A stretch of 63,985 nt of DNA, filler included, from Barthelona sp. PAP020 (taxonomy: Eukaryota): the NCBI GenBank assembly GCA_040182905.1. It is 4 parts of 4 records of this genome, joined end to end, with 100 filler letters (N's around TTAATTAATTAA, not from the genome) between each part and the next. Parts side by side here need not be neighbours in the genome. Positions count along the whole stretch, not along the records: positions 17,330 to 34,481 come from JARQWU010000248.1; positions 34,582 to 51,773 come from JARQWU010000249.1; 2 more parts are not named here. One strand, 5' to 3'. The first letter of the stretch is position 1, and every line of letters starts with the position of its first letter. Position numbers and translations under genes: made by a program. Of this stretch, positions 5 to 63,745 are shown one piece after another. The notes under the pieces were generated by a model. It saw nothing but the letters and a program-made list of their open reading frames with translations. It was not told the origin of the DNA and searched no databases.

Positions 5-175
5 TTTGGGATAAAATTTTGATCCCAGCTCTTTTCCTATTTTGTGCTATCTGACTTTCATTTTAAAGAAAAAATTCATTGTTCAACAGTTCGATCTGGC
101 CTCAAAAGATTTTAACAAATAAACACTATTCTTTCTTATTCAGTCATGCACTCAGCGTCTCATGGCCTGGAAATA
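5..175 (-). repeat. Repeat family R1, copy A (diverged, internally deleted)
   Basis: tttgggataaaattttgatcccagct...ttcaacagttcgatctggcctcaaaagattttaacaaataaacactattctttcttattcagtcat...ggcctggaaata aligns by eye to the reverse complement of 34024-34207; lies ~200 bp 3' of the ankyrin gene. Confidence 0.85.
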
Positions 176-376: not shown

Positions 377-2266
377 CTAATCATCATCATCATTACTCTC
401 GTCACACTCATCATCTTTTTTATCAATGTACTGACGCATGTTACCACCATTCCTTTCATTGATATCAACCAAGTCCCAACACATGTTAAATGACAGATCA
501 AAATCTCTTTGATTCATGTATACTCCAGCACTCACAAACTGTCTAATTATGGAACTCTTCACATTCATCATGACAAGTGTGGTCAAGAGATAACCTTCAT
601 CCTTTACCAACTCAATTAATTCAGATTGAGACACACGCTCAAAGTTCAAATCAATCGGTTCATCTTTCTCCAACAATTCTTCAGGACAATTTAGAATACA
701 ATATTCATCCATTTCTTCCCACAGCTCAACAGATGTATATAAACCATTAAAAAATAGTAGCATCTCAAAAGAGTCAATCTCAATTTTTGGATGGTTTAAA
801 AGCATTTTGGCAATTTCAATATTAGTTGGGTGACAACTAACTCCGAATGAAGAACATCCATCATCAGCACATAAGTTAACATCAGCTCCACGTTCCAACA
901 ACATTTTCGCAACATCAAAATGACCATACTCACAACTAATCATCAATGGTGATGCACCATTGCCATGACACAAATCTACGACAGCACCACGATCCAATAG
1001 CATTTTGGCAATATCAAAATGACCTTCTTGACAACTAATATACAATGGTGAAGACCCTTCATTATTACGTATGTTAATATCAGCCCCACGATCCAATAGC
1101 ATTTTGGCAACATCAAGATGATTTTCTTGACAACTAATATACAATGGTGAAGATCCTTCATTATTACGTATGTTAATATCAGCCCCATGTTCTAAAAGCA
1201 TTTTGGCAATATCAAGATGCCCTTCTTGACAACTAACATATAATGGGGAAACTCCATTAACGACTCGCAGACTGAGGTCAGCTTTATAATCCAAGAGAAT
1301 TCTAGCAACATTAAAATGACCATTTACACAACTGATAAGCAGTGGAGAAACCCCATTATTCAAACATTTGTTAACAATAGCATTATGTTCCAAAAGCAAT
1401 TTGGTAATATCAAAATTACCAACTTGACAACTGATGAACAATGGAGAAGCATTATCATCCTGACACAAATTTACATCCGCACCACGATCCAATAACATTT
1501 TGGCAATATCAAGATTACCCTTTTGACAACTGATGAACAATGGAGAAGTGCCAATATTAACACAGAAATTAACATCAATACCATAATCCAAGAGCATTTT
1601 AGCAATATCAAAATGACCTTTTTCACAACTAATATATAATGGTGAAGCACCATCATTCAAACATAAATTGAAATCGGCACCATTATCCAAAAGCATTTTG
1701 GCACAGTCAAGATGACCTTTTTCACAGGCAATATATAATGGTGAAGCACCATCACTGATACACAGGTTAACATTTGCAGCATGATCCAAGAGTGTTTTCA
1801 CAGTATCATAATGACCATTTTGACAACTTATCCACAATGCAGTATATCCATTATCATTCTTGTTGCTCATATTAATTTTGGCTCCATATCGCAAAAGAAT
1901 TTTAGTAACATCATGATGACCTTTTTGACAACAAAGAAATAATGGAGAAACACCCTCATCAATATAAAAATTAATGGTGCCACCAAAATCCAACAACAAT
2001 TCAACCATATCTGCATGTCCATTAATAACAGCACCACATAGCGATGTTCTTCCATCCTTACCACGTTTGTTTATGTCAACACCTGATTTAATACATTGTT
2101 TGACAAGTTCCATATTTCCATCATAAGCTGCAAAATATATCTTCTTTGGATAACCATTATCCTCAAATCCATCTATATCAAAGCCATTTGGAATGATGAC
2201 TTGGTCCATATTATGTTTAATAAATGGATCAACATTATTGATTTCAATGGTGTTTTTGGTACTCAT
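377..2266 (-). CDS. Ankyrin-repeat protein (~14 repeats) with unrecognised conserved 82-aa C-terminal domain and acidic tail
   Basis: Repeated G-x-SPLYISC-x-x-GH-x-D-IAKMLL-x-x-GAD units; C-terminus SELIELVK...CWDLVDINERNGGN...DDDD shared with 35118-35366. Confidence 0.95.
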   Translation of the reverse strand: MSTKNTIEINNVDPFIKHNMDQVIIPNGFDIDGFEDNGYPKKIYFAAYDGNMELVKQCIKSGVDINKRGKDGRTSLCGAVINGHADMVELLLDFGGTINFYIDEGVSPLFLCCQKGHHDVTKILLRYGAKINMSNKNDNGYTALWISCQNGHYDTVKTLLDHAANVNLCISDGASPLYIACEKGHLDCAKMLLDNGADFNLCLNDGASPLYISCEKGHFDIAKMLLDYGIDVNFCVNIGTSPLFISCQKGNLDIAKMLLDRGADVNLCQDDNASPLFISCQVGNFDITKLLLEHNAIVNKCLNNGVSPLLISCVNGHFNVARILLDYKADLSLRVVNGVSPLYVSCQEGHLDIAKMLLEHGADINIRNNEGSSPLYISCQENHLDVAKMLLDRGADINIRNNEGSSPLYISCQEGHFDIAKMLLDRGAVVDLCHGNGASPLMISCEYGHFDVAKMLLERGADVNLCADDGCSSFGVSCHPTNIEIAKMLLNHPKIEIDSFEMLLFFNGLYTSVELWEEMDEYCILNCPEELLEKDEPIDLNFERVSQSELIELVKDEGYLLTTLVMMNVKSSIIRQFVSAGVYMNQRDFDLSFNMCWDLVDINERNGGNMRQYIDKKDDECDESNDDDD

Positions 2267-5973: not shown

Positions 5974-8355
5974 TTAAATGTTTCTTTGAACTGGAGAGTT
6001 CATTTGTTGAAAATTACCACCGGAAACTTTTCCCTTTGGTTTTCTTAACAATAGCCATGCGACTACTCCAAGAATAGGAACAACAACAAAAGCCAAATAG
6101 ATGGGATTCATTCCAGCAACTTGAGGAAGCTCAGTGTCCAATGAAAAAGTAGACAAATGAGAGGTCAAACAAATTGTAACATTACCTTCTTCACTTAACT
6201 TTGTGACACCATCAATTTGCCATTCCTTATTAGTTTCATTATAATATTGACAAACACCCTTACCATTGATACGAACTTGAATCTTTTCTTGTAAATTCTT
6301 TATTGATAATGTAGCATTGCTTGTAAAAATGGAGATATCTACCATGTGAGTTCTATTGTAAGCAGCAGCAAATTCTTTACTTAATTCAGCAACTTTAACA
6401 CCAACTGACTCATCAGAAAGGCTACTGAAGGCACTTTTGGGAATGGTAACATTACCAGCAGTCACATTTAAATTTTGAGAAACACCTTCAATTTTAAGAG
6501 GGGTAATCTTCATTTCAACTTCTCCTTCAGTAAAACTGGAAGTTTCATTGAAACTTAATGCTTTTAATGAAGTTGTGGCAACTTCTTTCAAAACTTCAAT
6601 AACGTTCTTTGTAACATTAATATTCTGTTCCATTGTGCAGTTCATCACATTAGATCTAAGACGAGATGCAGTCTTGACAATCTTTTTCAATGTGTCAGGA
6701 TCTGAATAGTTACTTGCTTTCTTCATTGAAACCAATAATTCCAAAGACTCTTCAACATTGACACTGATATTATTAAACGTTTGAATAGTGTTTACAAAAG
6801 TGGAAGAACTTTGGGTATCATTAATATTAGCAGAGACAGCAGCCAATTTTTGAACAGCTGTTTTAATTTCAAGAGCTACACCAGTCTTATTGAATGTTCC
6901 TGTTTCATTAGCTTGAATCAAGACTTTTTCAATATATTCATTGATCTTTTGAGAAGCATCAACAATGTTGGATGTGTTGGCATTAGTAACAGCATTCTTG
7001 GCATCTTCAACCATTTTCTGAACTTCTTCTTTGTTATATGAAGGAATACTAATTCCAATACTAAGTTTGGCACTAACCTTTCCAGTTGACGTAACTGCAG
7101 TAACTTGAACAGTTTGATATGACTCTTTACCTGCCCCAATACTTGTGCATCCAGGAAGAATAGTCGTCAAAGTGGGTGTTTTTGTGGTAGAAATAAAACG
7201 TACATCATCACTAACACCACAATCAAATAATACCCAATTATAATATAATGCAGTAGAAGGAGCGTTAACAACAGTGAAAGTGAAATTGGTCTTTAAACTA
7301 ACTCCACTGCCAGGAGATGCATTTAATGTAATGGAAGAAGGAGGTTGACCAACCGTAAATTTTTTGGTTGAAGATAAATATCCAGTTTCAGTCTTACAAT
7401 ATGCAGTATAAGCTAAAGCTTGATAATTTCTACTTGCTGGTTCAGATTGAATGCAAACACTACTTGTCAAAGCGGTTGAAATATTAGAAATAACAACTGA
7501 TTTGGGGAAACTTCCATTGAAACGAATATTTTGACAGGCAACACTACTGGCACAAACAACTACATTCTCAGTTTGTGTAACGATGTCAGAATTAGCAGAA
7601 CGAATGGTTAAGGATGAACTGGCGTTAAGCAAAAAAGTTCTTTTTTCAACTAATTCACCATATTTTAATATTACTGATATGGTAGCCCCAATAGGAATTT
7701 TAGAGCCTTCTACAACAGTAAAATCTAATAAACCGTATAATTTTTCTTGGTCAACTTTTTTCTCAACTTTGAACAAATCAGGATAGTTAAAAATCCAAGT
7801 AACTTCCAATCCAGTACTCACAGTTGAACATTTTCCATCTAAAGTGGCATTAGCAAAAATACTGTTTTTTGCTGAAAGTTTGACAGCCATTGAAGTGATA
7901 TTAGTAATACCATTCAAGGAATGGGCAACTTTTAACTGACATAATAAGGCTTTGTTCTCAATAACTTGTTGAACAAGAGTTCCAACAACTGAATCACCCA
8001 TAATCATTTGACAAGTGACGTTGAAAGGGTAACTGTAAGAATAGGATGTATTCTTCAACACAACAACACTAGTAGGAGTTGATACATATTGATTGGTAAC
8101 ATTTGTTGTGGGAGAAGTCGATTGAAGGACAACATTTTCATTCTGATTCACTTGAGCTGTCCATTTGAAACTAATTTCACCAGGACAATTGATTGAATCA
8201 ACATAAGCAACAGTACGTAAAGTTAAAAGTCCATCGACAAATCTGGCATTGTCTACAATGAGACCATTTGAATACATAACTGCTTTTGGGCTGCATACAC
8301 AATTAATTGTGACAAAAAGGTATGATAAAGCAAAAATAAATGCTACAGCTTTCAT
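5974..8355 (-). CDS. Single-pass surface protein with REJ/PKD-like ectodomain and GAIN/GPS autoproteolysis motif
   Basis: Signal peptide MKAVAFIFALSYLFVTINC; S/T-rich beta ectodomain (ASPGSGVSLKTNFTF); GPS motif CQYYNETNKEWQIDGV...CLTSHLSTFS; one TM helix, short basic tail. Confidence 0.8.
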   Translation of the reverse strand: MKAVAFIFALSYLFVTINCVCSPKAVMYSNGLIVDNARFVDGLLTLRTVAYVDSINCPGEISFKWTAQVNQNENVVLQSTSPTTNVTNQYVSTPTSVVVLKNTSYSYSYPFNVTCQMIMGDSVVGTLVQQVIENKALLCQLKVAHSLNGITNITSMAVKLSAKNSIFANATLDGKCSTVSTGLEVTWIFNYPDLFKVEKKVDQEKLYGLLDFTVVEGSKIPIGATISVILKYGELVEKRTFLLNASSSLTIRSANSDIVTQTENVVVCASSVACQNIRFNGSFPKSVVISNISTALTSSVCIQSEPASRNYQALAYTAYCKTETGYLSSTKKFTVGQPPSSITLNASPGSGVSLKTNFTFTVVNAPSTALYYNWVLFDCGVSDDVRFISTTKTPTLTTILPGCTSIGAGKESYQTVQVTAVTSTGKVSAKLSIGISIPSYNKEEVQKMVEDAKNAVTNANTSNIVDASQKINEYIEKVLIQANETGTFNKTGVALEIKTAVQKLAAVSANINDTQSSSTFVNTIQTFNNISVNVEESLELLVSMKKASNYSDPDTLKKIVKTASRLRSNVMNCTMEQNINVTKNVIEVLKEVATTSLKALSFNETSSFTEGEVEMKITPLKIEGVSQNLNVTAGNVTIPKSAFSSLSDESVGVKVAELSKEFAAAYNRTHMVDISIFTSNATLSIKNLQEKIQVRINGKGVCQYYNETNKEWQIDGVTKLSEEGNVTICLTSHLSTFSLDTELPQVAGMNPIYLAFVVVPILGVVAWLLLRKPKGKVSGGNFQQMNSPVQRNI

Positions 8356-9038
8356 TTCGAAACAAAAAAAAAAACAATGGAAAAAAACCCGCAATCCTTC
8401 CAAACCTATTTTTGGAAAAATATTTCTATTCTTAATTCATGTGGGATATTTTATTTTGATTACCCCTATTTTAGATATTTAAAAATAAAACATCAAATTT
8501 GTTTCTCCCAATGAATGCCACAAAGCAATAGTTCTGCAATTTCAAAATTTCAAAAAAAGCGTTAAAACAAAACAAAAGTTTATTTAAGGTTTATGGTTGC
8601 ACATTAAAAAGTTTTTATCATAAAAATTGAAAGATCGAAAAAAAATTTTCACATTCAAGATTCTTCAAACACATTCATATAATTTCTAAAATCAAATTCT
8701 CTGTTGTTTTAGTTTTATTTATTTGATTTTCTTGTTGTCAATGTAAAAAAAAAAAGAAAATTTTGGAACCTGTTCATTTTTTTTTGCAATACTAAACGTT
8801 AATAATAAACAATCAAAAAGATATCAACAAATTTTATTTAAAAGAAATGACAGCAAGCCCGACACTCTATTACCATTGATTCAAAAAAGAGAAAAGAAAA
8901 AAAATTGCTTCTTCATGTAAAGCCAACCAAAGATTTTCTTTTCTCATTACAAAATGCACATTTACATTGTTTTAAAAGGTTAAAAATCTCTAAAACATCA
9001 ACAAATAGAAAAAGAACAAATAGAATGAGTTTTGAACA

Positions 9039-16462: not shown

Positions 16463-16800
16463 TAACCATTAAAAATAAAAAATATCTATTCACTTTTTTT
16501 CCTTAAAAACTTTATTTTTCTTTGGAAGTGTGAATTTTTGAAACATTGAGACTGAAGAACAACCAGATTAATCAAAAAAAAGTAAAGAAAATGTTAGTAA
16601 ACAATCAATCATTTTACAAAAGATAAATAGCAGGAAAAGGATTTGAAAATTATCGAAATGTAACACAAATAAGTAAAATAAAATCAAAAATAAATGGAGA
16701 TTCTACAAATAGACAAAGAATCAATCTTTTTTTTTTCTACCACAGCAAGTAGAATACGTTAAAAACTTGAAAATTCCATAATTTATCGATTTCTTTGTTA

Positions 16801-17229
16801 ATGAAAATTAAAAAAAACAATGATGCAAGTTTTTCCGAGTCAAATGTTATAGATAAGACCGAAAGTGAGAATGTTGGTTGTTTTGGCCAAAAGAAAAAAT
16901 TATTATCCCGAACGATTTTTATGAATGATCATGTTCAACCTGAAGAATGTGGTAATGTTACAAATGAAGTGAAAAATACCCAATACACACCTTTTACTTT
17001 TCTTCCTTTGACTCTTTATAATCAATTTAAATATTTTTTCAATTTATATTTCTTGTTATTGGCCTTATCTCAATTTGTACCTGTTTTACAAGTTGGTTTC
17101 TTAACCACCTATTTAGCACCATTGATTTTAATTCTTATGATCTCTTTAAGTAAAGAAGCATATGATGATATTCAGCGTTATCGGAGAGATAATGTTGAGA
17201 ACAATAAATTATACCAAAAGGTAACTCCT
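16801..17229 (+). CDS. P4-type ATPase (ATP9/Neo1-like flippase), 5' fragment cut by assembly gap
   Basis: NTQYTPFTFLPLTLYNQFKYFFNLYFLLLALSQFVP...KEAYDDIQRYRRD; runs into N block. Confidence 0.85.
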
Positions 17230-17329
17230 NNNNNNNNNNNNNNNNNNNNNNNNNNNNNNNNNNNNNNNNNNNNTTAATTAATTAANNNNNNNNNNNNNNN
17301 NNNNNNNNNNNNNNNNNNNNNNNNNNNNN
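17230..17329. other. Artificial contig linker (N44-TTAATTAATTAA-N44)
   Basis: Exactly 100 bp with a six-frame stop 12-mer; identical at three places. Confidence 0.97.
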
Positions 17330-17414
17330 TTTTTTTTTTTTTTTTTTTTTTTTTTATAAGAGTATTTTTGAAAAAAAAAAAAAAAAAAAATAATAATAAA
17401 GAAACATTTCATAT

Positions 17415-21251: not shown

Positions 21252-22586
21252 TTAAACATTATGAAATTGGGCAACATAGTATTTTACTCTGTCAAAATTA
21301 TTGAAAAGGTTATCATCCAATCTTAACCATGTTACTGCATTGGTCTTACAATATCCATTTGCTTGATTAATTGTATTTTTGAAAGCGCCATCATCCCATC
21401 TTTCAATAGCATTTTCTCCAGCAAATCTTAATCCTTTATTACAGGTGGCAGCATGCACTTGATGAACTAATTCCTCAGGGGCACACAAATTTTGTCCATT
21501 CCTGGAACAAGAATTGGCTTGTTCATTATCAGTCATTTCTAAACATGTGAAATCAACAACTACAGGTAATCTGGCTAATTGATTAACAATTAATGCATAA
21601 GCATCATTGCCATTGGTATTATAATATCCTGCAGTAAGTTCAGCAGCATGAGAAGGTGTGTTGTACTGCCAATGAATTCCAGAAATCTTAAAAGCCATAT
21701 CTACTTTACCCATACCAGGTACAGCAGAAATTGTGGATAAAATTCTCATGGCATGATCAATGAGAGATTGAGAATACCATTTCAAGAAAAACAATCCATA
21801 TTCACTCTTATAGCCATCTCTAAAGAAACTTGTCTCCCAAGGCATGCTATTATAGTTTCCTGCATCAGTAGGTGGACTGTTCCAGTCAGGATTCACGGCT
21901 TTTGCTTTGCTTTGGAAATCTGCCATCATATATTTATCCCAACATTGGAAAGCACCGATACCAGGGAAATTCCAACGAGATAATTGATAAGAAGGATATC
22001 TAAGTTCACCACAAGGACCCAATCCAACTTGAATTTCATTTAAAGTATTACTAAGATAATCTTTAGCTTGATTTAATAATTCGGCAACATAATTGGCATA
22101 AACTTGAACAGGAGTTCTACCATTTAAAATTGGTTTTTCATCAATTCCCAATGACAAATATTCAGGATCAGGATTACCCCATTGATCTTTATAATAAATA
22201 TCAGGATTAACTTTTCCAATAGCTTCAACCCAACCAGGCAAACCAATTTTAACACCATCACCATTATTGTCTCCACATGTATGGAATGAGGCAACAAATT
22301 GAACTTTAATGTTGTTTTGTTTCGCTAATTCTAAAATTTTCATGTATGGCTTAAAATTATATTGTTTGGGTGCAGTTTCAACAATTCCCCACCAAACATC
22401 TAACATAACACCATCAACATTAATATCGTGTAATCTTTTAAACCAACTTCCAATGGTGTCTTCACCATAACCTAAATCACCATGAATATTAACGGTGTCC
22501 AAAGGCATCATCACATTAAATGCAGTTTTTGCACTGATAACAATGAGTACACAGCTAATAATCAAAAATTTGCCGATTGAAACCAT
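21252..22586 (-). CDS. Secreted beta-amylase (GH14)
   Basis: VMMPLDTV, VDGVMLDVWWGIVE, SFHTCGDNNGD, GLGPCGELRYPSY, KISGIHWQY, FTCLEM, AGENA; signal peptide. Confidence 0.95.
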   Translation of the reverse strand: MVSIGKFLIISCVLIVISAKTAFNVMMPLDTVNIHGDLGYGEDTIGSWFKRLHDINVDGVMLDVWWGIVETAPKQYNFKPYMKILELAKQNNIKVQFVASFHTCGDNNGDGVKIGLPGWVEAIGKVNPDIYYKDQWGNPDPEYLSLGIDEKPILNGRTPVQVYANYVAELLNQAKDYLSNTLNEIQVGLGPCGELRYPSYQLSRWNFPGIGAFQCWDKYMMADFQSKAKAVNPDWNSPPTDAGNYNSMPWETSFFRDGYKSEYGLFFLKWYSQSLIDHAMRILSTISAVPGMGKVDMAFKISGIHWQYNTPSHAAELTAGYYNTNGNDAYALIVNQLARLPVVVDFTCLEMTDNEQANSCSRNGQNLCAPEELVHQVHAATCNKGLRFAGENAIERWDDGAFKNTINQANGYCKTNAVTWLRLDDNLFNNFDRVKYYVAQFHNV

Positions 22587-23160
22587 GAAAAAAAAAAAAT
22601 TCTATGTTATTGATCTCTTTAATTTGTGATAGAATATTCATAAATTTTTTGAATATTTTTACACATAAGACAATGATGGACTTTTGTTCATTCAAACAAA
22701 AAAAACCAATATGCGAGACAGTAAAAAACATTTTGTGTGGGATTTCATATTTACTGAAAATTGTTTTTCTAAGTTTTTTTATTTTTTAACAAAACAAAAA
22801 AGGTTTAATCTCCTTCAATTGAATCTTTTGGATGATTTTTTATTGGATTTAAGGGAATGAAATTGATTAGTTTGAAAAAGATTCTAGATTTTTTTTTTAC
22901 CGTTTCCCAGTAAGATTTGATCTGATAAAATTTTTCATGTATCAAATGATTTGAGATATTAGGTCGATATTCAATCATTGATTGTATTCAAAGAGTGCGT
23001 GATTGACAAAAAGAATCTTTGGTAATTTTTTTACGATTGTACAATTAAAATGGCTTAATGATAAAAGTATGGAAATAAAAAAACAAATTTGATTTATAAT
23101 TGATGAATTGAATGAACACAACAAATGAATTTGAAAAATTAAATTAAAAAAATTGAAAAA

Positions 23161-24870
23161 CTATGGTGATAAATTGCAATTGAAGTTATCCAAAACCCCA
23201 CTAATATCTAATTCTTCAAAATGATGTTCTGACATCATTAAATCAAACAAATTTGAATCAAAACATTTAGTTTCGACATTAAAGCATGAATAAAAAATTT
23301 TTGGGAATGAAGTTCTTTCAAAAACGTTTAGAGGATGTTTTAAAGATTTATTTAGCAAATTATATTGTTCTAAATTGACTTTTAAAAGCTTATTTTTTAT
23401 TTTTAACTCTATGCAAGACAATCTGGCGTCAAATTTTTTAATCACTTGACAAATGGATTTGTTTGGCAAATTTTGAATGTTTTCAAGTTCAGTTTCATTT
23501 TGGATGAATTCTTTTCTCATGAATACAGGAAGTTGATCCAAATCAATAACAGGTCTAACATTGAAATCCTCATATTTTAATTGATTTGATGTTCCAATAC
23601 ACATATTGATAATATTGTGATTTTTTAAAGACGATAAAACATTATCGATCGTCCAATATTGACAACTAATGGAATGAAGTTTCATTTTTGAAAAATAGTC
23701 CTTACAACGTATTAAATACTTAGTTTCTTTTGTCTGAGCATATTTGAAAATAAATAAATACAAAAACTCATTTAAATAATGAGGTTCTTTGATGAAATCC
23801 CAGTACAGATCAATTCTTTGTTTGGTAGGCTTGAGCTCAACCAACACATTGAGGATATCTTTAGCATTGAAGAATTCATGTTTGATCAGGTAATTGGATA
23901 TTTTTTTTTCTTCAATTTCCAACAATTTCAAAACTTTATCAAAATTTTGTTTTTCTTTCAAAATATTCAAGAAATATTCATTAACGTCATCATAGGTGTA
24001 GTTATACTTTTCAAATAATTTTTTCAATTGTATATTATCGAATCTATCTAAAAATAGGGATAAAATTATTAAAGAATTGTTTATATAAATTCTAGTTTCA
24101 TTTTTTATCTTGCTAATATCTGTAGCAATTAGATTCAGACAAAACTCAACGAATTTCTCCTCATTCTCTTTCATACTTAAAGAACACATCTCATATATCT
24201 CTTTAAAAGCTAATTCTTGTAAACTAAAAACACTTCTTAAATTTTCAGGCACACTTTGTATGTCAACTTGAAAGTTTTCAAAAAATTTGTAAAAATTATC
24301 AAAATTTTCATTCATTAAACTGCTACATTGAAGCTTAGTCATGTGTTTTATATATGGTCGAATCAAAATAAATAAAAATTTTTGAAAATCATGGATTCCT
24401 TTGCATAAAGTTCGCAGATTTGGAGAATATTCCATAGATCTGCTTGACAAAACTATTGAAGATTCAACAGAAAAAAATATATACTCACAAATTTTCATTT
24501 TTTTGTCTAAAATAAATGGATTACCAAAAACAAAAGATTTTCCAATTTCTTCAATAAGATCAGCAAAAACAATGTATAAACATTTAAATAGATCTATATT
24601 AACATCATATATTTGAAAACATTTTAAGTATTGTATTATTTGAGTAATTTTTTTATCGTTCATTCTTTTTATCTTCAGTATTTCTTTAAATTGATTTAAT
24701 ATCTGTTCTCTTTGTTGATCAGTTTCATTTTTATCAATATTGAAATCAACTTTGTTGAATAAGTTGTATATTTCCTGACTGCAATGATCGAAAAACTTTA
24801 TTGATTCAGCTTCCTCTATTTTTTCAATATAATTCGAATAATTTGTTTCAAAATTTTCATAAAACTCCAT
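23161..24870 (-). CDS. Hypothetical helical protein (possibly a very divergent cullin-like scaffold)
   Basis: 569-aa ORF; only weak cullin-like segment SCIELKIKNKLLKVNLEQYNLL. Confidence 0.55.
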   Translation of the reverse strand: MEFYENFETNYSNYIEKIEEAESIKFFDHCSQEIYNLFNKVDFNIDKNETDQQREQILNQFKEILKIKRMNDKKITQIIQYLKCFQIYDVNIDLFKCLYIVFADLIEEIGKSFVFGNPFILDKKMKICEYIFFSVESSIVLSSRSMEYSPNLRTLCKGIHDFQKFLFILIRPYIKHMTKLQCSSLMNENFDNFYKFFENFQVDIQSVPENLRSVFSLQELAFKEIYEMCSLSMKENEEKFVEFCLNLIATDISKIKNETRIYINNSLIILSLFLDRFDNIQLKKLFEKYNYTYDDVNEYFLNILKEKQNFDKVLKLLEIEEKKISNYLIKHEFFNAKDILNVLVELKPTKQRIDLYWDFIKEPHYLNEFLYLFIFKYAQTKETKYLIRCKDYFSKMKLHSISCQYWTIDNVLSSLKNHNIINMCIGTSNQLKYEDFNVRPVIDLDQLPVFMRKEFIQNETELENIQNLPNKSICQVIKKFDARLSCIELKIKNKLLKVNLEQYNLLNKSLKHPLNVFERTSFPKIFYSCFNVETKCFDSNLFDLMMSEHHFEELDISGVLDNFNCNLSP

Positions 24871-25058
24871 TTTTATCGAAAAAAAAAAGAACTAATAAAA
24901 AAAGAGCAATTCTTTATAGTACTGCACTTACAAATTAATATTATCAAAAAAGTTCAATCAATTTATTCATTCAGAATTACTTTGACAAATATATTTGAAA
25001 ATAATAAAGAAGAACTTCGAAAAAATAATTTACATCAGTGAAATTTCAAACACAATCT

Positions 25059-31886: not shown

Positions 31887-31905
31887 ATACACAGTGCTTT
31901 GGAAA
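31887..31905 (-). repeat. Remnant of R1 terminus
   Basis: atacacagtgctttggaaa vs reverse complement of copy B atacacagtgcttcttggcttggaaa (13-bp exact match); 32 bp from the kinase-ankyrin stop. Confidence 0.45.
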
Positions 31906-31936
31906 GTCGGAAATTCTTGGAAAATTCAAATTATTG

Positions 31937-33811
31937 TCAATAATTGGAAATCAACAGGTCATATATTTGTGAATGTTCATTATCTCTTGCAATTTCTATA
32001 AGGGGAATACCTTCCTTCATTTTAGGATTTAAATTCGCATTACACTCTAATAACAATTGAACAACCTCAAGATGACCATTTTCACAACTGATATGCAACG
32101 GTGAAATGCCATCATTATTACACAAATTAATATCAGCTCCATTATTCAACAACATTTCAACAACATCAATCTGTCCACATTGGCAACTGATAAACAATGG
32201 TGACTCACCATCTTTAGAACGAAAATTGACATGAGCCCCATTGTCCAAAAGCATTTTAGCAACATCAAGATGACCCTTACAACAACTAATATATAATGAA
32301 GAAGCATCATTACTAAGGAGTGAATCAACATCAGCCCCATGATCCAAGAGCATTTTAGCAATATCAATATGGCCCTTGCAACAACTAATATACAATAAAG
32401 AAGCACAATCATTTTTGCATAAATAATCATGTTTACGATTTAATAACAATTGAACAACCTCAAGATGACCATTTGCACAACTGATATACAACGGTGAGAT
32501 GCCATCATTATTACACAAATTAATATCAGCTTTACAATCCAAGAGCTTTTTGGCAACATTGCTATAACCATTTTGACAACTAATAAACAATGGAGAAGCA
32601 CCATTGTTCTGACACAACGTAACATAATCACAAAAATCCAGCAAAAAGTTAACAACTTCAATATGTCCATTACAAGAGGCCATCCAAAGCGATGTTTTTC
32701 CTTCTTTGTCTTGTTTGTTCACATTGACTCCAACTTTAATGAACTGTTTGACAATCTCAAGATTTCCATTGCCTGCTGCATCATATATCTCCATTGGAAC
32801 ACCATCAACTTCAAATTTACCCGCTCTAAACTCATCTGGAATACTAACACTGTCCATGTTATGTTTAATCCATGGATTTTCAAGAATAGTATCGATAACC
32901 TTCTTTAAATAATCAGTAATCAATTCAAATGATGGTCGTTCATTGGGTTTTTTGTCAAAACAATTCTTTAAAATGCCATGACCAGGAACAGAAATAATCA
33001 TCTCGTCGGAATAAGGTAAATACCCGTTCAACAGCTCCATAAATGTTTCAATATCAGTATTTCCATTAAAAGGTGGAATGTTTGTTATTACATACATCAT
33101 CATCACAGCAAATGCCCACACATCAACAGCTTTTCTATTGAGTTTGTCATCATTTTGGCTTTTAATAACTTCAGGAGCACTATAACCAATGGAACCAATC
33201 ATAGAAACCACTGACATACTGTTAGAATCAGTCACTGTCCCAAAATCGCTCAAAGCAGGAATGAACTTCCCCTTCACTTTCTTTAAAAGAACGTTATTTG
33301 GCTTTAAATCACCATGCACTAAACCGGATTCATGACAATAATCCAGAGTAGAGGCAACTTGCATGAGTATCGTGAGTTTTTCCATCAACGAAAGATTGGG
33401 TATTTCATGTTCAAGAACTGAGTCACAAAATTCCATAACAATTCCAGTTTTACCATTAATTTCAGTAATTCCATGAATTTGACGAATGAAAGGATGATTT
33501 AGGACCATTGGCATGCATTCTTTGCGAAAATCGTAATCATTTGGTTTGTTATGAAAGAATTTGATAATAATATTAATTTTGTCTCTTTCAGCAGTACTCA
33601 AATATGCAAAAGCACCACTTGCAAAAACATGATTGATTATTTTAATGGTAGATCCCGAAATATCTGTAAGTATCAAGTTGTTCATGAGTTCTGTGAATGA
33701 CCCTAAATTTTCATTCCGATTTTGGCTTTTCGGTCGCCAATCATTCAAAAAATTGATGCCAATATCATTTTCTATCTCTCTAATGGTTGATTCAATTGTT
33801 TCTTCGGTCAT
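31937..33811 (-). CDS. Protein kinase fused to ~9 ankyrin repeats
   Basis: ASGAFA loop, IIIK, HGDLKPNNVLL, SDFG, GSIGYSAPE, DVWAFA; then cap PWIKHNMD...IYDAAGNGN and ankyrin units like those of 377-2266. Confidence 0.93.
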   Translation of the reverse strand: MTEETIESTIREIENDIGINFLNDWRPKSQNRNENLGSFTELMNNLILTDISGSTIKIINHVFASGAFAYLSTAERDKINIIIKFFHNKPNDYDFRKECMPMVLNHPFIRQIHGITEINGKTGIVMEFCDSVLEHEIPNLSLMEKLTILMQVASTLDYCHESGLVHGDLKPNNVLLKKVKGKFIPALSDFGTVTDSNSMSVVSMIGSIGYSAPEVIKSQNDDKLNRKAVDVWAFAVMMMYVITNIPPFNGNTDIETFMELLNGYLPYSDEMIISVPGHGILKNCFDKKPNERPSFELITDYLKKVIDTILENPWIKHNMDSVSIPDEFRAGKFEVDGVPMEIYDAAGNGNLEIVKQFIKVGVNVNKQDKEGKTSLWMASCNGHIEVVNFLLDFCDYVTLCQNNGASPLFISCQNGYSNVAKKLLDCKADINLCNNDGISPLYISCANGHLEVVQLLLNRKHDYLCKNDCASLLYISCCKGHIDIAKMLLDHGADVDSLLSNDASSLYISCCKGHLDVAKMLLDNGAHVNFRSKDGESPLFISCQCGQIDVVEMLLNNGADINLCNNDGISPLHISCENGHLEVVQLLLECNANLNPKMKEGIPLIEIARDNEHSQIYDLLISNY

Positions 33812-34023
33812 GGTGTGTAAGAAGAAAAAGTAAAAAAGCTAAAAAATAATTTGATACACAAACATTCTAAAATGTTTATCAGAACAACCAGTTTGGTGTT
33901 GAAATCAGTATCGATAATATGGAAAGAACAAGTTTATTGAACATATGATATTTTCACTTCACAAACAATCCAAAAATTTGAGAAATTTTTACTTTTGGAC
34001 CATTTGTAAATTCAACAAATAAT

Positions 34024-34207
34024 TATTTCCAAGCCAAGAAGCACTGTGTATGAGTGAATAAAAAAGAATAGTGTTTATTTGGTTAAAGGCTTTCGAGGCC
34101 CGATTGATCTGTTGAAAAACTTTAGATTTTCTAAGGCAAAGTTTAAACTTTAAAATTTTGCTTTTTGCAAAAATATAAAAAAAGCAGGGTCAAAAATTCT
34201 TTCCAAA
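34024..34207 (+). repeat. Repeat family R1, copy B
   Basis: tatttccaagccaagaagcactgtgtatgagtgaataaaaaagaatagtgtttatttggttaaaggctttcgaggcccgattgatctgttgaaaa...; near-perfect inverted match to 35894-36077. Confidence 0.92.
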
Positions 34208-34481
34208 CACACAACCTGGATTCACACAATTTACTTTCAGTCTGGATCTCACACCCTGAGTTTTTCCGAAATTCACTAAAATGACTTTTTGGGTTTCTTT
34301 TCATTGAAAATAAGTTTATGTCACTACTGGAGCAAAATATTAGACCACTTTTATCTTTTCTTATTGTTAACATATCAATTATTGGAGTCCAACACAACAA
34401 GAACAAAAAATATTGATAATAAATGATGTTGATTTTATTAACTAAATTGAAGGTTGTCACACTAACAACATTAGAGACTCT

Positions 34482-34581
34482 NNNNNNNNNNNNNNNNNNN
34501 NNNNNNNNNNNNNNNNNNNNNNNNNTTAATTAATTAANNNNNNNNNNNNNNNNNNNNNNNNNNNNNNNNNNNNNNNNNNNN
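34482..34581. other. Artificial contig linker (N44-TTAATTAATTAA-N44)
   Basis: Same 100-bp structure as the other gaps. Confidence 0.97.
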
Positions 34582-35366
34582 GGGACATAAATGGTGGTAA
34601 TGTTGTTTTGGAAGAAAAACATCACACTGGTTGGATTTGGAGAATAAGAATTTCACCAGATGGCAAATATCTTCTGACTGGAAGTGGTGATGGCAGTGCA
34701 AAATTAATTGATGCAGACAATCTTTCACTTGTTCAAACATTCAATAATAGAGGTACTGTTAGAGCTGTTGGCTTCCATCCCACCCAAAGAGTTGTTTTTA
34801 CTGGAGATGAGTTAAAAAGAGCCAGAATCTGGAACATGGACGGTGGATCAATTGTTCATACATTTAACTTAAGCGATGCAGTTTTTGATTTTTCTGTCGT
34901 GCCACCCAATAATTTTATTGTTATGGCAAGTAGGGGATATATTATCTCTTATAATTTGCATACTTTTCAAGAAATTCAAAAGATTCCGTTAAGTTGTGAT
35001 GTTTCTCATTTTTGCATTACTGCAAGCCCTGATAAAAGACAGTTAGTCTGTGGAAGATGTTCAAACAACCTTATTAAGACATTTTCATTGTCATTTTTAT
35101 ATGACAATTCACACATGTCAGAACTTGTTGAATTATCAAAGCACAGTGGCTTTGTGTTGTCAAATTTCATACAAATTAATAAAAACAGTCAAATAATCAG
35201 GCAGTTGGTAGCTGGTGGAATTGATATGAATGAAGAGGAGTATAACATGGTCATTAATACTTGCTGGGATTTAGTTGACATAAATGAAGCTAATGGTGGC
35301 AATTTGCATTTGTTTATGAACCGTAAAAGCGATAATGACGATGATGATGATGATGATGATGATTAA
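34582..35366 (+). CDS. WD40-repeat protein (5' partial) with the same 82-aa C-terminal domain as the ankyrin gene
   Basis: HTGWIWRIRISPDGKYLLTGSGDGSAKLID, VRAVGFHP...RARIWNMD WD repeats; tail SELVELSK...CWDLVDINEANGGN...DDDDDDDDD. Confidence 0.92.
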
Positions 35367-35646
35367 GTAATTCCACAACTTCAACATTGTTATCAAGTTG
35401 TGTGATTAACCATTTCTTGTACTGTTGCTTTTTGGTGTGATTTTTTTATTTGTTGATTATTATATTGAGGCAGCTTGATTCAAAGTCGATCGAGATTTGT
35501 TATTATCAATCTTAGGGAACACTTCATTTCCTTTTTCTTTATTTTGCAACCTATTTTTGTTTTATGTAAATTGTGTTTTATTTTTTGTATTTGAAGATGA
35601 AGATGGTTTTTTGTAAAAAATAAAAATAAAATAAAAATAATTTATT

Positions 35647-35760
35647 TATTTCCAAACCAAGAAGCACTGTCCATATGAGTGAACAATGGTGTTATTTGTG
35701 TTATTTAGTTAATAGATTTCAAAACCCGATTAATCTGTTGAAAAAACTTTAGGTTTTCTA
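35647..35760 (+). repeat. Repeat family R1, copy C (truncated, diverged)
   Basis: tatttccaaaccaagaagcactgtccatatgagtgaac...cccgattaatctgttgaaaaaactttaggttttcta; same orientation as B, ~280 bp 3' of the WD40 stop. Confidence 0.85.
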
Positions 35761-35893
35761 TGGTAATTGGTCAAGTTGTGAAACACTAAATTTATTTACA
35801 AAGAAAAAGAAATCAGAGAAAACTCATTTCAATAAATCTCAGCCACAGAAGATGAGTGGCTGCAATTGAATCTTGGTCATCAAGTATGAAAAT

Positions 35894-36077
35894 TTTGGAA
35901 AAATTTTCCATTCCAATTTTTTTGTATTTTTGCAAAAGTAAAATTTTAAAGTTTGAACTTTCCCTCAGAAAATCTAAAGATTTTCAACAGATCAATCGGG
36001 TCTCGAAAGCCTTTAACCAAATAAACACAATTCTTTTTTGTTCACTCATACGCACAGTGCTTCTTTGCTTGAAAATA
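35894..36077 (-). repeat. Repeat family R1, copy D (inverted relative to B and C)
   Basis: ...tttcaacagatcaatcgggtctcgaaagcctttaaccaaataaacacaattcttttttgttcactcatacgcacagtgcttctttgcttgaaaata. Confidence 0.92.
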
Positions 36078-36832: not shown

Positions 36833-37285
36833 ATGATGATTGTTAATTATTCAAATACGCTGAAAATCTTTAAAACTTTCCGACAATATTCGAGTGAAGT
36901 CCTTAATCGAGCCAGAAATCCAAAACACTTCGGTTATTTTGATGAAACTCTCCCCAATGTTGGAACGGCTTTCGTAGGCTCTGCAGCATGCGGAGATCTA
37001 TTAAAATTACAGATTAAAGTGGATGAAGAAGATCAAAAAGATGAAATAATATCAGATGCTGTTTTTCAAACATTTGGTTGTTGTTCTGCAATAGCTTCTT
37101 CCGATTTAGCAACTGAATGGTTGATTGGAAAATCGCTTGAAGATGCCACCAAGATTAACAATACATCTATTGCTGAACATTTACGTTTGCCTGGTCTAAA
37201 AAGACATTGCAGTGTTTTGGCAGAAGAAGCAATTGCTGATGCTATTCTTGATTATCAAATGAAAAAAAGTGATAAAAATTCATAA
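36833..37285 (+). CDS. ISCU: Fe-S cluster scaffold IscU with short N-terminal presequence
   Basis: YSSEVLNRARNPKHFG, GSAACGDLLKLQIKV, FQTFGCCSAIASS, HCSVLAEEAIADAI; start could be 36812. Confidence 0.93.
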   Translation: MMIVNYSNTLKIFKTFRQYSSEVLNRARNPKHFGYFDETLPNVGTAFVGSAACGDLLKLQIKVDEEDQKDEIISDAVFQTFGCCSAIASSDLATEWLIGKSLEDATKINNTSIAEHLRLPGLKRHCSVLAEEAIADAILDYQMKKSDKNS

Positions 37286-51773: not shown

Positions 51774-51873
51774 NNNNNNNNNNNNNNNNNNNNNNNNNNN
51801 NNNNNNNNNNNNNNNNNTTAATTAATTAANNNNNNNNNNNNNNNNNNNNNNNNNNNNNNNNNNNNNNNNNNNN
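51774..51873. other. Artificial contig linker (N44-TTAATTAATTAA-N44)
   Basis: Same 100-bp structure as the other gaps. Confidence 0.97.
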
Positions 51874-51923
51874 ATATGCATCAATATATTGATGAAAATG
51901 CTGATGAAAGTGATGATGATTAA
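51874..51923 (+). CDS. 3' end of a third gene carrying the shared C-terminal domain (rest lost in gap)
   Basis: Reads (N)MHQYIDENADESDDD*, matching NMRQYIDKKDDECDESNDDDD* of the ankyrin gene. Confidence 0.7.
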
Positions 51924-52301: not shown

Positions 52302-52369
52302 TAAAGACTTTATTATTCTCAGTTAGAGTTTGGGGGTACTTGCAATTGAGTCGTTTTATGTGGATGGTT
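52302..52369 (-). repeat. Repeat family R2, copy 1
   Basis: Reverse complement aaccatccacataaaacgactcaattgcaagtacccccaaactctaactgagaataataaagtcttta matches 63677-63745. Confidence 0.85.
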
Positions 52370-63676: not shown

Positions 63677-63745
63677 AACCATCCACGCAAGACAACTCAG
63701 TTGCAAGTACCCCCAAACTCTAATCGAGAACAATAAAGATCTTTA
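63677..63745 (+). repeat. Repeat family R2, copy 2
   Basis: aaccatccacgcaagacaactcagttgcaagtacccccaaactctaatcgagaacaataaagatcttta; 23-bp exact core shared with copy 1. Confidence 0.85.

Follow-up and report, generated by a model that had tools for sequence, protein, structure and literature searches.

A C-terminal helical domain shared by WD40 and ankyrin-repeat proteins of Barthelona sp. PAP020 as a candidate adaptor box

Four loci in a 63,985-nucleotide window of Barthelona sp. PAP020 DNA (the whole stretch that we analysed) encode, in different combinations, ankyrin (ANK) repeats, WD40 repeats, a protein kinase, and a helical domain of ~80 residues without a Pfam match, here called TAIL. 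What does it mean that one tail follows such different repeat domains? A preliminary description of the window saw in these loci a set of parts shuffled like those of immune receptors. Barthelona is a free-living anaerobic flagellate with a small genome; Table 1 of PMC11316075 gives ~13 Mb and ~6,300 predicted proteins for PAP020. The features of the four loci are as follows.

377..2266, minus strand: gene A (629 aa), a cap, 14 ankyrin-type repeats, a linker, TAIL and an acidic end; ANK Pfam matches
416..661, minus strand: TAIL of gene A (HMM E 3e-34)
2063..2242, minus strand: cap and first, degenerate ANK repeat of gene A, 52% identical to gene B residues 308-367
31937..33811, minus strand: gene B, a protein kinase, a cap and 9 ANK-type repeats, without TAIL; kinase and ANK Pfam matches
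32711..32890, minus strand: cap and first ANK repeat of gene B, matching the gene A cap
34482..34581, no strand: linker of 44 N, a 12-base stop spacer and 44 N, artificial-looking, between two contigs
34582..35366, plus strand: gene C, the 3' part of a 7-blade WD40 and TAIL gene; WD40 Pfam matches
35085..35327, plus strand: TAIL of gene C (predicted model: five helices, mean pLDDT 84.5)
51874..51923, plus strand: locus D, the 3' end (15 codons and stop) of a short ANK and TAIL gene (transcripts P0004-P0007, P0029 and P0030)

The open reading frames proposed for genes A, B and C proved real at these coordinates, with Pfam matches to ANK, kinase plus ANK, and WD40, respectively. Their parts are also combined across loci, as had been claimed, in a chain that runs WD40-TAIL, ANK-TAIL, kinase-ANK. 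The links are the TAILs of genes A and C (BLASTP E 1e-21, 41% identity over 85 columns) and the cap plus first repeat of genes A and B (52% identity over 60 aa); a sequence search with the cap domain found no relatives, which is weak evidence. At locus D, positions 51876-51923 read as 15 residues and a stop that equal the C-terminus of five of the six isoforms of one ANK+TAIL transcript, so the N-terminal partner that had been left as a question mark is ANK. Gene B lacks TAIL and thus is not itself a TAIL-type receptor. Its kinase, which is non-RD, keeps the K, HGD, DFG and APE motifs and has no clear family match: the best PDB matches were RSK4, SNRK, CaMK1G and Aurora (~1e-17), and the best 60 of 476 included no Nek kinase.

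An identical 100-base linker occurs three times in the window (17230-17329, 34482-34581 and 51774-51873), enclosing complete segments of 17,152 and 17,192 bases after a first segment of at least 17,229. The first join cuts a P4-ATPase gene and has an unrelated EF-hand gene on its far side. Gene C begins at a contig start and lacks ~140 codons at its 5' end, which we sought to the left of the second join and did not find there. We infer that the linkers are artificial joins of unrelated contigs of ~17 kb each, sorted by length; consequently, genes B and C need not be adjacent in the genome, and the span 31887-36077, presented earlier as one gene system, crosses a join. The claim that two of three assembly gaps fall at family loci loses its footing, since these "gaps" are the identical, artificial-looking linkers, and the loci said to interrupt housekeeping runs sit at contig ends instead, gene A lying at the window start.

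Beyond the window, we found 61 public TAIL proteins. In all of them (61/61) TAIL is single and C-terminal, ending 2-24 residues before the C-terminus, and an acidic end is general (in 49 of 55 TAIL proteins the final 10 positions include at least four D/E). Clustered at 80% identity they form 52 groups, or 54 with genes A and C added; every protein whose accession was seen (26/26) belongs to Barthelona sp. PAP020. By architecture, 44 of the 54 clusters are single WD40-type, three long propeller-like and two ANK; the remainder comprise one kinase-like+ANK, one ARM-like, one small helical and two fragments. These labels come from Pfam, apart from the long, kinase-like and helical ones and two or three weak WD40 labels, which were assigned by eye, and the rare architectures come from transcripts assembled de novo, which could be chimeras; P0017 and P0018 have tails 97% identical and propellers 49% identical. 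The ANK+TAIL combination of gene A is seen in genomic DNA, not only in transcripts. TAIL thus reaches well beyond two or three genes with a single architecture, as 54 clusters end in it behind several types of N-terminal domain. Among metagenome and viral contigs we confirmed no TAIL locus, and a word-based search with the gene A tail returned nothing, a search that is insensitive, since relatives of that length exist. Literature on Barthelona and WD40 yielded no paper on a TAIL family, judged by titles and abstract openings; the main text of PMC11316075, whose supplements could list these genes, does not contain the word "ankyrin".

The preliminary description had also tied the family to a DNA repeat, R1, as its dedicated tag. 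The R1 features are as follows.

44..175, minus strand: R1 copy a, outer end at 175, running toward the window start
31887..31899, minus strand: claimed R1 remnant, a 13-base match only, at chance level
34024..34207, plus strand: R1 copy b, upstream of gene B and near the contig end, 88% identical to copy d over 186 nt
35647..36077, no strand: MITE-like element, R1 copies c (inward from 35647) and d (inward from 36077) facing each other, 74% identical over 135 nt, with TA at both outer ends

R1 itself is a real repeat, with four copies in the window at nhmmer E 1e-39 to 9e-33 and the next match at E 0.85 (the profile was built from the same four). The supposed remnant at 31887 is not: its 13 bases give no nhmmer match at E<=10, and matches of equal or greater length occur at two other places. 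In form, R1 appears to be a MITE's terminal inverted repeat. The element bounded by copies c and d spans 431 nt, is non-coding, and is the only complete R1 element. An inverted-repeat element shows the same end to both neighbours, which makes the shared relative orientation automatic, and a two-ended element of this kind thus explains what had been taken for a dedicated tag. All four copies begin with TA and their flanks differ beyond it, although the TA could belong to the repeat itself; no target duplication longer than TA was found at the four copies. MITEs of TA-targeting DNA transposons (Tc1/mariner, Stowaway type) are likewise non-coding, with long inverted ends and TA at the termini; R1 departs from the typical MITE in that its ends are only 74% alike, and no transposase was seen in the window. 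The window has no Rfam match, and a search of metagenome contigs for the R1 motif gave 0 matches. All three R1-bearing spacers touch a family gene, compared with 6 of 36 spacers overall that do so (p 0.003 uniform, 0.009 length-weighted; a post hoc comparison on 37 ORFs picked by hand), and R1 and the family genes share contig ends. A small, non-autonomous DNA transposon is the likely nature of R1; it would gather beside dispensable family genes and may help to duplicate them. Copies b and d were also considered as the ends of a Pack-type element carrying gene C; this is ruled out, as the pair spans a contig join.

Do these loci form an immune or prey-recognition repertoire? In the model put forward earlier, they are NLR-like receptors without an NTPase: sensing falls to the repeats and signalling to TAIL or the kinase, and the parts keep being reshuffled by recombination or by transposition of R1. 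We consider this quite unlikely. The family is large, limited to one lineage and mixed in architecture, R1 adjoins three of the four loci, and the DN3310 isoforms differ at 45 columns with alternative ANK repeat content, all of which suit the model, although the repeat missing in two of these isoforms may reflect an assembly skip, the flanking repeats sharing nine identical residues. So does the non-RD kinase of gene B, non-RD kinases being linked to immune receptors, and so does the variable top face of the propeller, whose loops exceed the bottom loops in variability among 31 core WD40 members (2.54 vs 1.92 bits, p 1e-4); WD40 paralogs generally vary in their top loops, which makes this comparison a weak control.

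Several observations argue against the model. Neither genes A, B and C nor the 55 motif-bearing TAIL proteins contain a P-loop, and genes A, B and C have no Pfam match to an NTPase (NACHT or NB-ARC). The high internal conservation claimed for the repeats is absent: it is defined as >85% identity over at least 100 aa (PMC4986451), whereas the ANK repeats average 66% identity in nucleotides and 52% in amino acids (in gene A, mean 52%; best pair 82% over 33 aa), and the WD blades of one protein, P0008, average 12% with a maximum of 22%. The proposed check of dN/dS per repeat position, run as site models of low power on 17 ANK repeats of 31 codons, gave an M0 omega of 0.19 and no significant class under positive selection (M8 vs M7, p 0.26; M8 vs M8a, p 0.10); one ANK hairpin site reached an ML omega of 3, which was not significant. 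Fungal NLRs of the HNWD group (HET-E, HET-D) likewise join WD40 or ANK arrays to different partner domains (PMC4986451), but TAIL proteins have no NACHT or NB-ARC and carry their repeats N-terminal of the constant domain, and the analogy is not supported, there being no NTPase, no high internal conservation and, in the low-power site models, no significant positive selection. Finally, a single architecture accounts for 44 of 54 clusters, and the ANK+TAIL members group as one clade (100/95) in the TAIL tree, which is otherwise largely open (36 of 49 inner branches), so that domain swaps look rare and old. We suggest that most of the family would stem from a WD40+TAIL gene through ordinary duplication, and that swaps, occasional and old, also contributed; one of them may have given ANK+TAIL, and the cap and ANK array would also have been joined to a kinase in gene B.

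The part that stays constant is TAIL. Seven columns of its profile are invariant in all 54 clusters (R38, G44, D61, L62, N66, G71 and N72), with a DL-x3-N-x4-GN motif as the core. A cysteine is kept in only 47 of 54, which ruled out the catalytic-Cys role that we had considered, and the 54 clusters hold no invariant residue set of catalytic type, contrary to the idea of TAIL as an effector. Seven invariant columns without an invariant cysteine fit a binding face rather than an active site. Among the 31 core WD40 members, mean identity is 53% in the C-terminal half of TAIL and 36% in the propeller.

The full WD40+TAIL protein is predicted as seven blades and a helical tail (pLDDT 90.4), with a predicted pair of beta-strands holding TAIL off the propeller; TAIL itself is predicted to fold into five helices, with a front half similar to a single ankyrin repeat. 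Foldseek searches of PDB and BFVD with the TAIL model returned nothing at E<=0.001. Over 48,161 chains, VIA-align gave a best Z of 4.1 (rmsd 3.4, 58 aligned), and ankyrin proteins and other generic helical repeats scored Z ~3.6; a second fold search reached at best Z 2.9, and the full model matched propellers only (Z up to 38.5). Searches with the predicted TAIL fold show neither a new fold nor a different one. At the sequence level, the best PDB match to the TAIL profile had E 0.41, the ESM Atlas gave no usable match for one TAIL, and hhalign of TAIL against the gene A ANK repeats was not significant (E 0.13).

The ankyrin-like front half raises the prospect that TAIL is a mere structural end cap, a degenerate ankyrin repeat with capping helices, and that duplication beside R1 transposons produced the family almost neutrally. 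Generic ankyrin proteins do match TAIL profile positions ~14-70, mostly 17-55, in a search of representatives, and the contig ends shared by R1 and family genes agree with such an origin. Yet a WD40 propeller, the domain in front of most TAILs, has no need of an ankyrin cap; conservation peaks in the non-ankyrin half; most members are long intact ORFs from transcripts; the ANK repeats are under purifying selection; and the only complete R1 element carries no gene. Taken with these points, the end-cap explanation is quite unlikely.

We favour, at a probability of about one half, TAIL as a docking box that links variable binding domains to one common partner, most likely a ubiquitin-ligase complex. 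The best reading of the Barthelona TAIL proteins is a lineage-specific family of adaptor "box" proteins, and of the options listed in the preliminary description "substrate adaptors" is the one we retain. Each WD40, ANK or ARM-like domain would pick its own substrate, the invariant face (R38 to N72 as listed above) would bind one conserved host protein, and that protein would lead to ubiquitination. The invariant TAIL columns suit this reading, and so do the variable top loops of the propeller, with the reservation about the control given above. A conserved tail on a variable head would equally fit a shared targeting or scaffolding tag that directs the repeat proteins to a single structure, be it cytoskeleton, membrane or chromatin. 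The general acidic end would suit such a tag, and known ligase-box motifs fail in TAIL: LPxP, for the Cul5 box LP-hydrophobic-P, occurs in 0/54 and the F-box-like LPxE[ILV] in 0/55 TAIL proteins; WDxR, the motif of DCAFs (DDB1-Cul4 receptors), in 2/55; and SOCS-box, F-box or PRANC Pfam matches in none of the 23 TAILs scanned at E<=10, a setting despite which HMMER filters drop most matches above ~0.1. No sequence feature points to a particular compartment, however, and where many recognition folds each carry one copy of a domain at the C-terminus, that domain is most often a ligase box, as with the SOCS box and PRANC. The BC-box consensus, (S,T,P)LXXX(C,S,A)XXX-hydrophobic (PMC3355856), is found in 1/54, within the last 115 residues. 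In Giardia, deletion of an ankyrin repeat relocalised a Nek, and repeats affect localisation in the Nek and Protein 21.1 ankyrin families (PMC3218828). On balance a tag that is not a ligase box seems unlikely, and would leave TAIL a lineage-specific domain of modest interest. A bolder form of the docking-box reading, which we hold unlikely, would make TAIL a new class of ligase-receptor box derived from an ankyrin-like hairpin, unrelated to the F-box, SOCS/VHL box, BTB and DCAF, spread with the aid of R1, and serving degradation-based surveillance against viruses, symbionts or prey proteins with ~1% or more of a very small genome.

Among known systems, poxvirus ANK-PRANC proteins pair an ankyrin array with a C-terminal ligase-recruiting box, like ANK+TAIL; TAIL proteins differ in being cellular, mostly on WD40, and free of PRANC or F-box matches and of LPxE. 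Giardia, a metamonad of Barthelona's sister group with a compact genome, has large lineage-specific ankyrin families of mobile repeats, with an N-terminal kinase (Nek-ankyrin kinases) or without one (Protein 21.1), some ending in a C-terminal RING (PMC3218828). The Barthelona repeats of genes A and B begin with SPL(Y/F)ISC-type sequence rather than the TALM of Giardia, its main family is WD40-based, and its tail is not a RING. Closest in layout are the SOCS-box receptors, in which WD40, ANK, SPRY, LRR or SH2 domains precede a C-terminal box; WSB (WD40) and ASB (ANK) proteins of the Elongin BC-Cul5 ligases likewise place one short conserved module behind many recognition domains (PMC4812663, PMC3355856). 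TAIL shares this order of recognition domain and single C-terminal box in 61/61 proteins and also resembles the SOCS box in its first helix, where an LxxL[CSAV][KR]-type core occurs in 34 of 54; it is longer (~80 residues vs ~40), and every TAIL protein of checked origin is from Barthelona. So small a genome keeps at least 54 repeat proteins that end in this unnamed domain. Were TAIL a ligase box, the design of SOCS-box receptors, in which a variable repeat domain precedes a C-terminal box, would have arisen again from other parts. TAIL is also a compact module with seven invariant residues, and its partner may hint at the role of the equally unexplained ankyrin expansions of Giardia.

The DNA of the window is AT-rich, gene-dense and eukaryotic, and includes the following loci:

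377-2266, minus strand: gene A, 14 ankyrin-type (ANK) repeats, then the tail domain (TAIL)
31937-33811, minus strand: gene B, a kinase with K, HGD, DFG and APE motifs plus nine repeats
34582-35366, plus strand: gene C, a WD40 gene, 3' part only
51876-51923: locus D, a stub identical to the C-terminal end of a short ANK+TAIL transcript (five of six isoforms)

The TAILs of genes A and C align with 41% identity (E 1e-21), and the cap (the stretch before the first ANK repeat) and first repeat common to A and B are 52% identical over 60 residues; no TAIL was found in gene B. Given these alignments, the domain calls and the identity at locus D, we therefore agree with the parts list of the preliminary description (ANK, kinase, WD40, TAIL and cap).

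A two-sequence TAIL profile recovered 25 proteins among 394 candidates, all from EukProt, and a 23-sequence profile searched against 1.84 billion representatives gave 70 matches at E≤0.001. Multi-stretch matches to the latter span only the front of the profile, and the two scanned were generic ankyrin proteins. TAIL occurs in 61 public proteins, always as a single copy ending 2-24 residues before the C-terminus. All 26 of those with an accession come from Barthelona sp. PAP020; of the rest, 15 are transcripts in EukProt and no source is shown for 20. Including A and C, the set forms at least 54 clusters at 80% identity, a lower bound because neither gene has a close match in it (best about 52% and 50%, respectively, over long alignments).

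Architectures of the TAIL clusters (labels beyond Pfam-supported WD40, ANK and weak ARM were assigned by eye)
Single-propeller WD40-type: 44, most supported by Pfam
Long propeller-like: 3
ANK: 2, Pfam-supported
Kinase-like plus ANK: 1
ARM-like: 1, weak Pfam match (E 0.0013)
Small helical: 1
Fragments: 2

As had been supposed, TAIL extends beyond two or three genes of fixed architecture and is joined to several kinds of N-terminal domain. A Pfam scan of 23 TAILs returned weak, scattered matches and no fitting family, and we found no published description of the domain in titles and text passages (supplementary files were outside the scope). TAIL is a real, lineage-specific domain family of known design. 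By eye, its most divergent public members (P0055, P0059, P0064, P0069, P0053 and P0076) have an extra N-terminal helical stretch, in P0076 without a propeller, which may pack against TAIL to make a split domain. The predicted start of P0010, a WD40+TAIL transcript, seems out of frame where the gene C contig begins; it is possibly a broken copy.

TAIL is predicted to form five helices (mean pLDDT 84.5), and a full-length WD40+TAIL model shows a seven-blade propeller, a long strand and then TAIL (pLDDT 90.4). Seven columns (R38, G44, D61, L62, N66, G71 and N72) are invariant in 54/54 clusters, the Cys is not, and an acidic C-terminal end is general. Among 31 core members, mean identity is 53% in the C-half of TAIL versus 36% in the propeller. 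The family combines a shared tail with variable heads, and it is improbable that TAIL is a neutral cap. Propeller loops vary more on the top than on the bottom face (2.54 vs 1.92 bits, p 1e-4; faces assigned from model strands by the usual convention), a contrast we take as weak support because it is common in WD40 families. Conserved CxC and CGxC motifs at the propeller closure of the core WD40+TAIL family (residues 276, 278, 296 and 299 of the public protein P0008, and the matching gene C stretch) are possibly a metal site.

The preliminary description had likened these genes to fungal NLR/HNWD receptors, as a repertoire diversified by recombination or transposition. According to passages of PMC4986451, a fungal NLR has three parts, the middle one an NTPase, and repeats count as highly conserved internally above 85% identity over 100 residues. 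In contrast, no P-loop was found in A, B, C or 55 TAIL proteins, and mean repeat identity is 52% in gene A (66% at the nucleotide level) and 12% among the WD blades of P0008; the analogy is not supported. Variable ANK positions lie mostly on the hairpin and first helix, but codon site models of 17 repeats estimated omega at 0.19, and neither comparison (p 0.26 and 0.10, at low power) gave a significant class of selected sites. An immune-sensor role is unlikely, if slightly less so than a neutral cap. A tree of TAIL was built from 52 of 63 rows, with 11 excluded (nine duplicate isoforms, a fragment and the public protein P0018). It groups gene A with the locus D transcript in a single clade (100/95) amid WD40 rows and otherwise leaves 36 of its 49 inner branches open. 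The tree fits a single ancient replacement of WD40 by ANK plus a few further captures, rather than constant reshuffling. Isoforms of DN3310, an ANK+TAIL transcript group, diverge at 45 columns and do not all contain the same repeats, and P0017 and P0018 share 97% identity in the tail and 49% in the propeller; these are signs of recent change, but unsafe ones that could be transcript assembly products.

The DNA repeat R1 has four copies with a sharp common outer end (profile built from them: E 1e-39 to 9e-33; next match E 0.85). Copies c and d (within 35647..36077) are opposed and delimit a non-coding element of 431 bases that has TA at either end; copy a (44..175) runs toward the window start and copy b (34024..34207) toward the contig end. 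This is presumably the anatomy of a MITE-like element. Because such an element presents the same end to both neighbours, the reported sharing of one relative orientation by the R1 copies is uninformative, and copy b lies upstream of gene B; the supposed remnant (31887) matches over 13 bases, a length equalled or exceeded at two other places. R1-bearing spacers touch a family gene in 3/3 cases versus 6/36 of all spacers (p 0.003, or 0.009 with length weighting; a post hoc test on hand-picked ORFs, and two of these three spacers lie at segment ends). The proposed linkage survives as a notable association, which insertion into dispensable regions fits as well as gene carriage. A second repeat, R2, occurs inverted at 52302-52369 (+), ~380 nt downstream of locus D, and 63677-63745 (-), 11.3 kb apart (87% identity over 69 nt).

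The "assembly gaps", two of which were said to fall at family loci, look like artificial joins: all three are one identical 100-base linker, a P4-ATPase (flippase) gene (16771-17229, +) is cut off at join 1 behind its N-terminal domain and an EF-hand gene follows beyond the linker, and the ~140 codons missing from gene C are absent left of join 2. We therefore infer that unrelated contigs of similar size (complete segments 17,152 and 17,192 bases; the first at least 17,229) were strung together, so the neighbourhood of B and C is not shown; B, C and D lie at contig ends and A at the window start. Multi-copy DNA is where short-read assemblies break. The published PAP020 short-read draft comprises 1,035 contigs (N50 24 kb, 13.2 Mb, 6,305 predicted proteins), as described in part of PMC11316075. 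The segment after join 1 opens with a poly-T/poly-A palindrome (17330-17396).

Of ten window proteins compared with EukProt, two have exact copies there, and a Barthelona sp. PAP020 protein represents the cluster of one of them. Other genes include a beta-amylase (GH14; 21252-22601, -; Pfam E 1e-89) with an exact copy in EukProt, and a single-pass membrane protein (5974-8436, -) that has a GPS motif (GAIN autoproteolysis; Pfam E 2e-4) but lacks a seven-helix part. The C-terminal part of 23161-24891 (-) is cullin- or APC2-like by eye, with no Pfam match at E≤0.01. IscU (NifU_N) lies at 36833-37285 (+); passages of PMC11316075 describe it as kept in barthelonids, with ISC components absent from skoliomonads.

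Gene B resembles the Giardia kinase-plus-ankyrin expansion, but without TALM-type repeats; some related Giardia proteins lack the kinase and some end in a RING domain (PMC3218828, in part). SOCS-box receptors, among them the WD40-bearing WSB and ankyrin-bearing ASB proteins (passages of PMC4812663 and PMC3355856), have the TAIL family's layout of a single constant module placed C-terminally on many kinds of recognition fold. By sequence TAIL does not belong to them: the BC box is found in 1/54 TAIL clusters and LPxP in 0/54, and the first helix retains only an LxxL-S-K-like core. A localisation tag, which could also account for one tail on many heads, is doubtful, though the likeliest of the alternatives. 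With the SOCS-box layout, yet no membership, we infer by analogy, with a probability of about 0.5, that TAIL is a docking box that would join variable recognition heads to one partner, most likely a ubiquitin ligase, much as the SOCS box serves WD40 and ankyrin receptors alike.
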